A stretch of DNA of 30,509 nt. Source: Candidatus Rifleibacteriota bacterium (GTDB taxonomy: Bacteria; Muiribacteriota; Ozemobacteria; Ozemobacterales; Ozemobacteraceae). Numbering within the stretch: position 1 is the first letter of the stretch; every line of letters begins with the position of its first letter. The stretch is taken from assembly GCA_051747585.1 (NCBI GenBank), contig JBNJGH010000035.1, forward strand, positions 1 to 30,509, read 5' to 3'. This document shows positions 1,913 through 30,509 of this stretch, one piece after another. Under the pieces are notes generated by a model, which worked only from the letters and a program-made list of their open reading frames with translations, was not told where the DNA came from and ran no database searches. The position numbers were made by a program, and so were the translations under genes.

Positions 1913-2282
1913 CAGCAATTCTCGGTCAGCAACTATCGACTATTTTCAGAAAAAGAAACTGCCTCACACCAAGCCTCAAAGCCACAAAGAAAATAACCAC
2001 AGAGCGCACAGAGAACACAGAGAATCTTTTTCAGCCATTGTTTCCTTCTTCAGCAAGCCTTCAGAAAAACACGAGTGCTTTTCTGAAGGCTTGCTGAAGA
2101 AGGAAAAGCCAGGCGGTGAAACCGCCGGCTATTTGTCCACAGGACAAATCCTGGCTGAAAAAGATTAAAAAATCAACTCTGTGCCCTCGGTGGCCTCAGT
2201 GGTTTAAATTCTATATTTGACAGAAAGAAATAAAAACAAAACTTTTGAAAACCAGCTAATAATTAATTACCTGGAATTACTG
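1913..2282 (+). mobile_element. Nested MITE-like element, copy 1 (370 bp)
   Basis: Ends CAGCAATTCTC / GGAATTACTG; flanking direct repeat AAGTTTT (1906-1912, 2283-2289); inner IRs AATCTTTTTCAGCC (2023-2036) / GGCTGAAAAAGATT (2153-2166); perfect 28-bp hairpin arms 2041-2068 / 2079-2106. Homologous to 11387-11756 and 30052-30399. Confidence 0.85.
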
Positions 2283-11356: not shown

Positions 11357-11386
11357 ATAACAGCTTTTAAAAAATAAATAATAACT

Positions 11387-11756
11387 CAGCAATTCTCAGT
11401 GAACCGCTATTAGCTGGTCTTCAAAAGTTTTTGCTTGATTTATTACTGTTAAATATAGAATTTTTACCACTGAGGTCACTGAGGGCACCGAGACGATTTT
11501 AAAATCTTTTTCAGCCTTTTTTTCCCGCATCAGTAACCCCTCAGAAAAACACTAGTGCTTTTCTGAGGGGTTACTGATGCCGAAAAAGCCGGACGGCAAA
11601 GCCGCCGGCTGATTGTCCAATGGACAATCATAGGCTGAAAAAGATTCTCTGTGTAACTCGGTGAGCTCTGTGGTTTTTTTCTGGCGGCTTTGAGGGTTGG
11701 TGTGAGGAAAATCCTTTTTCTTAAACGAGTTAATAATGGCTAACCGAGAATTACTA
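11387..11756 (-). mobile_element. Nested MITE-like element, copy 2 (370 bp; shell inverted relative to copies 1 and 3)
   Basis: Ends CAGCAATTCTC / GAGAATTACTA; flanking direct repeat ATAATAACT (11378-11386, 11757-11765); inner IRs 11503-11516 / 11633-11646; perfect 22-bp hairpin arms 11527-11548 / 11559-11580. Left arm matches the reverse complement of the copy 1 right arm. Confidence 0.85.
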
Positions 11757-11782
11757 ATAATAACTTGTATTTATTCGAAAAT

Positions 11783-11811
11783 TTGACCACTGAGTGCTGC
11801 TGACTTATAAT
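11783..11811 (+). promoter_or_regulatory. Putative sigma70 promoter
   Basis: TTGACC-N17-TATAAT upstream of the GGGGG RBS and ATG 11840. Confidence 0.55.
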
Positions 11812-30051: not shown

Positions 30052-30399
30052 CAGCAATTCTCGGTCAGCGACTATCAACTTGTTTCAAAAGAGAATTTGT
30101 CTCACACCAAGCCGCGAAGCCGCAAAGAAAAGGCACAGGTAAGAAATTGATTTAGCTGGCCTTATAAGGTTTTTCATCGCAAATTCTTAGTATATTGTTA
30201 ACCACAGAGCCCGCAGAGTTGCACAGAGAATCTTTTTCAGCCTTTGTTTCTGCCATCAAATTATTAGTCAGAAAAGCACTAGTGTTTTTCTGACTAATAA
30301 TTTGAAGGCAGAAAAGCCGGACGGTGAAACCGCCGGCTGATTGTCCAAAAGGACAATCCACGGCTGAAAAAGATTAAAAAATCGTCTCGGTGCACTCTG
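30052..30399 (+). mobile_element. Nested MITE-like element, copy 3 (right arm interrupted)
   Basis: Starts CAGCAATTCTCGGTCAGC, identical to copy 1; extra ~67 bp at 30132-30198; inner IRs 30229-30242 / 30362-30375; 28/29-bp hairpin arms 30247-30275 / 30286-30314. Homology stops at 30399. Confidence 0.85.
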
Positions 30400-30509
30400 G
30401 TGCGTCAGGTTAAGCCTGACTTCTCTATTAACCTGAAAGGAGGTTAACGTGATAATTGAATGTTCGTCATGTAGCCAACCCGGCACTGAAAGGAGTAATC
30501 CCCAAAGTG
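30400..30509 (+). mobile_element. Probable 5' end (domain I) of a group II intron, truncated by window edge
   Basis: Begins GTGCG exactly where repeat homology breaks; small hairpins; TAGCCAAC (epsilon'-like) followed by CACT..GGA-GTAA-TCC..AGTG (GNRA-capped, domain Ic-like). No RT ORF or domain V is visible in the window. Confidence 0.6.

Follow-up and report, generated by a model that had tools for sequence, protein, structure and literature searches.

A 370-bp MITE with two core orientations in Candidatus Rifleibacteriota, most likely a MITE variant and not a programmed inverton

Introduction

Among the closest described systems are the bacterial MITEs (Correia/NEMIS, RUP, ERIC, Nezha). 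In the accessible part of PMC3733652 these are described as non-coding elements of 70–300 bp with terminal inverted repeats (TIRs), target duplications and strong folding, which occur in more than 100 intergenic copies and have their ends in common with autonomous insertion sequences (IS). The element studied here shares these features at a length of 370 bp, but differs in carrying a nested second repeat doublet inside and in having both orientations of its core in abundance. In the openly accessible main texts that were searched, no description was found of a bacterial MITE whose core is abundant in both orientations, nor of repeats flanking GxxExxY genes. The ISNCY-type IS are a further point of comparison: a 1564-bp IS in another genome (G022) has near-identical ends and a sister IS a 9-bp duplication, whereas the present element encodes nothing. 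With REPINs/RAYTs, as far as the accessible part of PMC3116915 describes them, there is a likeness in build only (inverted repeat doublet, fixed length, conserved ends and a compensated variable hairpin). Unlike REPINs, our element moves as a TIR/duplication unit and has a branched three-hairpin head, and by eye its aligned arms contain no GTAG tag, which the accessible part of PMC3733652 gives as a REP feature.

Three further systems bear on the inner part of the element. Template switching at short inverted repeats yields both homogenisation of the arms and inversion of the spacer, and the inverted spacers documented in the accessible part of PMC8604942 are 2–5 bp long and lie in yeast genes. 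Mirrored arm changes, flipped loops, a preference for long arms and recurrence are common to that case and to ours; here, in contrast, the spacer measures 116 bp and sits in a mobile element, by which each form is amplified. Invertons, from what is accessible of PMC11892184 and PMC10028968, likewise have a segment between short perfect inverted repeats in two orientations, but in the present element the orientations were seen across dispersed copies and not within one locus, and no invertase was found. The GxxExxY (TIGR04256) cassettes are similar in their inward CAC.GAG triplets with a 9-bp period on both sides; in our element, by contrast, the gene is replaced by an inverted repeat and three hairpins, and the doublet lies inside an unrelated TIR shell. 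New in this work are an empty site, an ISNCY-type partner, the two-layer anatomy and evidence of rare flips.

Results

Anatomy of the element

The window, i.e. the whole stretch of DNA analysed, is contig C35 (30,509 nucleotides) of a Candidatus Rifleibacteriota genome that was surveyed at 4.14 Mb in 330 contigs and 93.6% completeness. The features of its three copies of the element are collected in Table 1. The core sizes are 116, 116 and 119 bp for copies 1, 2 and 3, in agreement with the initial annotation, which had given copies 1 and 2 as 370 bp each with 116-bp cores. The common shell ascribed to all three copies was found in copies 1 and 2 but is incomplete in copy 3, where arm A is substituted and outer arm B is missing. 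Other small hairpin sequence stands in place of this arm B (30408–30509 of the window) and is also found beside copy C323:2371.

Both arms terminate in the same repeat, starting CAGCAATTCTCGGT. Folding of the whole copy 2 element gave a z of −12.8, and the blocks of inner inverted repeat (IR), core and IR from all 101 complete copies in the genome are predicted to adopt the same three-hairpin, four-way-junction shape. No ORF of 80 aa or more was found across 11387–11756, and Rfam gave no match at the gathering score in the window. A structured RNA was rejected on three counts: no Rfam match, no G-U pair in the stem of the long hairpin and a negative covariance model. Just downstream of copy 2 and outside the element, the only strong promoter-like match (11 of 12), at 11783–11811, lies upstream of a 94-aa ORF of the CPF_0552 family; 35 letters within 11766–11811 differ at many places in a related strain (X1, see below).

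Table 1. Coordinates of copy 2 and of the other two copies in the window.
Feature	Position	Strand	Remark
Whole 370-bp MITE, copy 2, inverted-core (I) form	11387..11756	-	Shell reads A to B on the minus strand
Left 9-bp target-site duplication, ATAATAACT	11378..11386	.	Same as 11757-11765; single at the X1 empty site
Terminal inverted repeat, B end	11387..11402	+	Same end on the 1564-bp IS in G022
Outer arm B	11403..11465	+	Alignment of 36 copies
b-type CAC.GAG triplet, 9-bp period, with 10-nt spacer	11466..11502	+	
Inner 14-bp IR 1, inversion boundary	11503..11516	+	
Core, 116 bp; predicted four-way junction when closed by the IRs	11517..11632	+	Folding
Long hairpin H, 34-bp arms; tip flipped and arms mirrored among copies	11520..11587	+	
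Middle hairpin M	11587..11610	+	Terminator-like on the minus strand: stem and T run, by consensus match only
Short hairpin S	11611..11629	+	
Inner 14-bp IR 2, inversion boundary	11633..11646	+	
a-type CAC.GAG triplet directly against the IR	11647..11674	-	
Outer arm A; contains a further degenerate triplet (CACCAA../CAAAG type)	11675..11740	-	Alignment
Terminal inverted repeat, A end	11741..11756	-	
Right 9-bp target-site duplication	11757..11765	.	Identical to the left copy
Copy 1, 370-bp MITE, F form (A-core-B), young core	1913..2282	+	IRs 2023-2036 and 2153-2166
Copy 3, F form, 119-bp core, arm A altered, outer arm B absent	30052..30408 (end approximate)	+	IRs 30229-30242 and 30362-30375

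Orientation of the core in the window and in the genome

The core of copy 2 with its IRs (11503–11646) is a direct repeat of that of copy 1 (2023–2166; 79%), whereas the arms of copy 1 at 2153–2283 and 1909–1993 are inverted repeats of the copy 2 arms at 11386–11516 (79%) and 11676–11760 (76%), respectively. The core of copy 2 is thus inverted relative to its shell, and the switch lies exactly at the perfect 14-bp IRs, as had been read from the sequence at the outset. The longest exact repeats found elsewhere across the two IR junctions of copy 2 are only 38 and 27 nt, which makes the assembly artefact that had been considered for this copy unlikely.

The genome contains 191 exact occurrences of the 14-mer of the IR where 0.05 are expected, so its repetition is not due to chance. 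A census of IR pairs at most 400 bp apart, with two mismatches tolerated, yielded 104 pairs, 101 of which enclose cores of 114–119 bp. Each core was read in the order H-M-S and the copy was called F when arm A adjoins H and I when arm B adjoins H. By this rule 61 cores are F (∼60%) and 40 are I (∼40%); a lone exception at copy 2, a possibility raised in the initial annotation, is not what this tabulation gave, copy 2 being one of the 40. When partial copies are included, the counts of IR junctions form reciprocal pairs (a-H 83, b-S 74, b-H 48, a-S 46, and 6 unclassified). All 101 complete cores are flanked by one a-type and one b-type arm, and a-core-a or b-core-b products were absent among them.

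The mobile unit

Copy 2 is bounded by TIRs and flanked by a perfect 9-bp target duplication. Among the 45 full-length copies the duplication is perfect in 14 and has at most one mismatch in 22, the other 23 being without a near-perfect one; three I copies have perfect duplications, and the flanking repeat of copy 1 is 7 nt only. An empty site was found in run X1, from a strain ∼99% identical to the window, where a 3865-nt contig joins position 11386 to letters that by eye match 11766 onward, so that the 370 bp and one duplicate are missing (one locus, one contig, one run). Runs X4–X9, which contained small shares, were set aside for statements on strain or habitat. This absence indicates that the whole 370-bp element is the mobile unit. 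Copy 2 is therefore a MITE by its ends, duplication, non-coding nature, multiple copies and presence/absence between strains, which bears out the non-autonomous mobile element proposed earlier. Its core is only 73% identical to the commonest core and the copy is nevertheless polymorphic between close strains, which argues that the divergent cores belong to lineages that are still live, rather than being just remnants in decay.

The earlier suggestion that the core integrates into the shell by itself was rejected, since both a and b arms are present on each complete core, the whole 370 bp is absent in the related strain and no lone core was found. The core-less shells are, by eye, microhomology deletions or carriers of other palindromic cargo, and no clean empty shell was seen among them. 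In 20 copies that lack both TIRs, pieces of the outer arms have mostly survived, and no duplication was seen where the triplets end. Internally deleted copies were noted at C4:68125-68242, C5:57153-57409, C318:58-270, C11:42995-43149 and C209:2106-2219 of this genome (G000); several have intact 9-bp duplications and some of their junctions lie at short shared sequences. The same or a sister TIR shell was also seen around unlike palindromic cargo (REP-like hairpins, CACGAG arrays), in this genome (C7:4172-4581, C203:1377-1731, C248:1388-1744, C63:17233-17451 and C13:41659-41871) and in relatives, so this MITE family seems to have captured host repeats repeatedly.

The likely mover

A 14-nt end motif of the element was found in 29 of 50 genomes of the family, with 11–61 occurrences in seven of them (0–1 for the reversed control). 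It bounds elements of 57–326 bp with other hairpin cargo, many with 9-bp duplications. In G022 the motif bounds the 1564-bp IS with a 443-aa DDE ORF, a copy that lacks a target duplication; in a second genome (G006) it is found upstream of a homologue that is truncated, and a sister IS in that genome, whose ends are related, is flanked by a perfect 9-bp duplication. The 443-aa transposase has a DDE_Tnp_1 domain (27.1 bits) and reached no NCBIfam family cut-off; of the 15 plasmid homologues listed, three carry an ISNCY annotation. An ISNCY-type DDE transposase acting in trans is the likely mover of the element. The proposal to look for a transposase or recombinase gene flanked by the element's own repeats is answered by a DDE IS with the outer ends in G022, and not by one in the element's own genome (93.6% complete), where a cognate transposase with these ends was not found.

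The 1564-bp IS possibly belongs, on our assumption, to the ISMae2 group. Members of the ISMae2 group have CAG ends and a 9-bp duplication. The accessible part of PMC2779907 gives neither the ends nor the duplication length of this group. A set of IS of 1.56–1.77 kb, L111 (G022:C71:117396-118959), L114 (G006:C55), L115 and L116 (G024), has CAG-starting ends and DDE ORFs of 440–500 aa that score below every NCBIfam cut-off. L062 (G063:C1), 835 bp long and bounded by TIRs, has a near-perfect 9-bp duplication and carries fragments of an ISAs1 and an ISNCY-like transposase.

Candidate partners within the genome itself were rejected because all lack the ends of the element: the IS1380 (C47:3320-4642), the frameshifted IS1182-like element (C194:1077-2329), the IS110-family element (C72:117-1151), the RAYT-like gene and a distant ISNCY-like ORF on C307 (21–27% identity). 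The last lies in a single-copy two-gene unit (C307:183-2629) of a 308-aa ORF followed by a 511-aa distant relative of ISNCY-type transposases. The contig end truncates the RAYT-like gene, on C196; the only flank that can be seen has neither IR nor triplets, and no IR was found on the contig. No IS256 was found in the genome.

The inner layer

Three CAC.GAG units with a period of ∼9 bp precede each inner IR. At 28 GxxExxY loci examined in relatives, among 42 matches listed, such triplets stand upstream of the gene in 17 cases and, inverted, downstream of it in 15; 13 loci have both, whereas 13 of 734 control windows were positive. As the triplets bracket GxxExxY genes in relatives, the inner module resembles a gene-less GxxExxY-type doublet with a three-hairpin head. 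By eye, outer arm A of copy 2 resembles the flanks of the GxxExxY locus L125. No GxxExxY or PDDEXK_3 gene was found in the element's own genome (93.6% complete) or in any of five congeners.

Homologues of the element were sought more widely. In 86 other genomes of the phylum a covariance model of the core gave no hit (36 candidates scored per genome), a search of 40 relatives gave only one weak 27-nt match, and scans of metagenomes and genome collections gave none. In a looser metagenome scan, triplets or hairpin tip were present in none of 80 loci among the matches listed.

Flips of core and hairpins

The tip of H occurs among the 101 copies in two mirror forms (45 and 34 copies) and two symmetric forms (14 and 6), with 2 unclassified. 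Symmetric tips need copying and not cut-and-rejoin, because conservative inversion cannot make them. Flips occur most often in the long stem, M and S being almost free of them; a loop flip was seen for S in one complete copy and possibly for M in one. Changes in the H arms of the 40 young cores are mirrored in 14 cases vs one-armed in 7. Summed over the H stems of 22 copies, there are 116 two-sided changes and 14 broken cells, and G-U does not occur, a pattern that fits DNA copying better than RNA selection. Of the mechanisms offered at the outset, template switching therefore fares best, given the mirrored H arms and the symmetric and mirror tips.

The IR pair behaves differently from the hairpin arms: over the 101 copies it shows 3 mirrored vs 52 one-arm changes, i.e. 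it is not homogenised. Its diversity, measured on 19 divergent copies and partly biased in that these were picked by their IR, is 0.015 and 0.033 vs 0.14–0.28 elsewhere, and this conservation suggests sequence-specific recognition.

Young cores are F in 35 cases vs I in 5 (n = 40), older ones F in 26 vs I in 35. Arm haplotype B1 is carried by 4 of 4 classifiable young I copies vs 8 of 32 F copies (Fisher p = 0.008; 38 of the 40 young copies had enough flank, 2 were unclassified, and the copies are not independent). On trees the orientation changes 17 times for the core (101 rows) vs 27.2 when shuffled, and 8 times for the shell (45 rows) vs 11.6; strongly supported branches force only 4 and 2 changes, respectively. 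Core flips thus look rare and, judged from these alignments, appear to be inherited along lineages, and it is likely that there were at least two inversions, one old and one within the young group. The nearest shell neighbours of the four full-length young I copies are F copies (89–92%).

Copies also differ in how their parts are combined. Each of the four possible pairings of arm haplotypes A1/A2 with B1/B2 is present in copies with intact target duplications. Seven full copies have identical cores in shells that differ by 10.6%, which requires core conversion, cassette exchange or assembly collapse. The cores of two copies, C52:1327-1518 and C92:8205-8401 (G000), measure 164 and 169 bp; each has a long hairpin at either end but no S, and the two hairpins are unlike in sequence. 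An independent collapse of a symmetric H-M-H ancestor was rejected, as S itself and the polarity of M are alike in F and I.

Gene context

One of the 101 cores overlaps a long ORF. Hairpin M with its T run is terminator-like in one direction only, so a core flip could matter to neighbouring genes. Sixty-five copies had genes on both sides (by crude ORF calls); where these neighbours are co-directional, the shell runs against them in 27 cases vs 8 (p = 0.002), and for the core the split is 23 vs 12 (p = 0.09), so gene direction tracks the shell more than the core. Divergent genes flank 23 copies and convergent genes 7, and these 7 are all of the inverted form.

Discussion

Overall, the data are probably best explained by a 370-bp MITE moved by an ISNCY-type transposase, whose two core orientations arose by rare, passive template switching or short-homology recombination and were then spread. 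The shell would have captured a gene-less GxxExxY-type repeat doublet bearing the three-hairpin core. A single-stranded state during replication, repair or transposition gap filling may expose the IRs and hairpins, and a polymerase copying the opposite arm or strand would invert the interval between the repeat pair and homogenise the long hairpin. Each new orientation could then found a lineage that is amplified through transposition, and arms and cores may be reshuffled when copies recombine or convert one another. A small number of founding inversions, two or more, would be enough, and frequent switching per locus would not be required. Several observations speak against this explanation: the IR pair is not homogenised and is yet the most conserved part of the divergent copies, a-a and b-b products, which copying beyond the IR might generate, are lacking, the inverted interval is 116 bp vs the published 2–5 bp, the seven identical cores in differing shells would call for core conversion or assembly collapse in addition, no cognate transposase was found in the genome, the IS in G022 is without a target duplication, and the strongly supported tree branches force only two to four orientation changes.

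Some of these observations would be accounted for by an enzyme-assisted flip-flop or cassette exchange, in which a GxxExxY-type PD-(D/E)XK nuclease or another nicking enzyme would recognise triplets and IR and cut beside the IRs, after which hairpin-primed repair would invert the core or swap in a donor core in either orientation. The inward triplets that bracket GxxExxY genes so much more often than control windows, the scaffold fixed in every one of the 101 cores and the switch points lying all at the IR agree with this; IRs that are conserved without being homogenised, the lack of a-a and b-b shells and identical cores in differing shells are the reasons why we keep it in play, as an unlikely alternative. 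Against it stand the failure to find a GxxExxY or PDDEXK_3 gene in the 93.6% complete genome and in the five congeners, the TIR-less copies with their outer-arm remnants and without duplication at the triplet edges, and the uniform orientation (by eye) of GxxExxY genes with a common upstream neighbour (L118-L121; L122, L125, L131). Gene conversion after one old inversion, which would have moved young core sequence into old inverted copies and so mimicked repeated inversion, appears improbable as well. It presupposes that the IR-core-IR block can be aligned to any other copy in either orientation, and it would fit the four arm combinations with intact target duplications, the merely moderate correlation of shell with core identity (rho about 0.55) and the two-long-hairpin cores, which are expected from exchange between F and I. 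However, the young I shells are nearest to F copies, so conversion must import both junctions into a young shell, and a single inversion in place is simpler.

A programmed inverton, the recombinase-driven invertible module of the initial annotation, is at best weakly indicated, and we regard it as very unlikely that a site-specific recombinase flips the core per locus to reverse a polar terminator (M and T run) or a promoter. Such a switch would agree with the perfect, conserved IRs as sole switch points, the one-directional terminator-like hairpin within the invertible part and the near lack of overlap with long ORFs. However, the 93.6% complete genome contains two tyrosine recombinases, both XerC/XerD-like, and no serine recombinase/resolvase (PF00239) or invertase was found in it; its one IS110 has a non-coding flank without a distinctive match to the IR. 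The orientations of young copies are not randomly mixed and follow lineages, gene context follows the shell more than the core, and strand-change joints were not listed in the contigs of four runs, where copy 2 was absent from X1, the best run, and copy 1 unbridged. Assembly effects, finally, are the least probable source of the pattern; repeat collapse would have to have produced part of the inverted copies as well as the uniformity of the young cores and the variation at the hairpin tip. Many of the 330 contigs end inside the element, near-perfect duplications are missing in about half of the full-length copies, and in two young I copies (C21:34046 and C314:269) the whole 144-bp IR-core-IR block is identical in other copies. 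On the other hand, in 17 of the 40 I copies, copy 2 among them, neither junction is spanned by an exact repeat of more than 40 nt, the junction counts are reciprocal, and perfect duplications flank three I copies. Assembly effects may explain a few young copies at most, and not the finding. Taken together, the element is most likely a MITE variant and not a programmed inverton.

An unlikely but bolder reading is that of a two-layer selfish element, in which the three-hairpin head of a gene-less GxxExxY-type inner layer, closed by iteron-like triplets and a fixed 14-bp stem, would be nicked and recopied or swapped between copies, to end in flip or flop, and the ISNCY-type MITE shell would have taken it over and disperse it. 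The terminal hairpin of parvoviruses, with its flip and flop forms, is an analogy for this. If it were true, the core would be an exchangeable cassette that sweeps pre-existing shells either way and reverses a polar terminator; and if a nuclease is the driver, the element would be a defined substrate for the uncharacterised GxxExxY proteins.

For the explanation by rare flips that we prefer, the finding carries a caution: two orientations between perfect short repeats need not amount to a phase-variation switch, and rare flips amplified by a mobile element can look programmed. The 101 copies form a natural dataset for studying, within one bacterial genome, how hairpin arms are copied and loops inverted. 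For the family, a widespread MITE is now tied to an ISNCY-type transposase, with a shell that takes up palindromic repeats differing between genomes.
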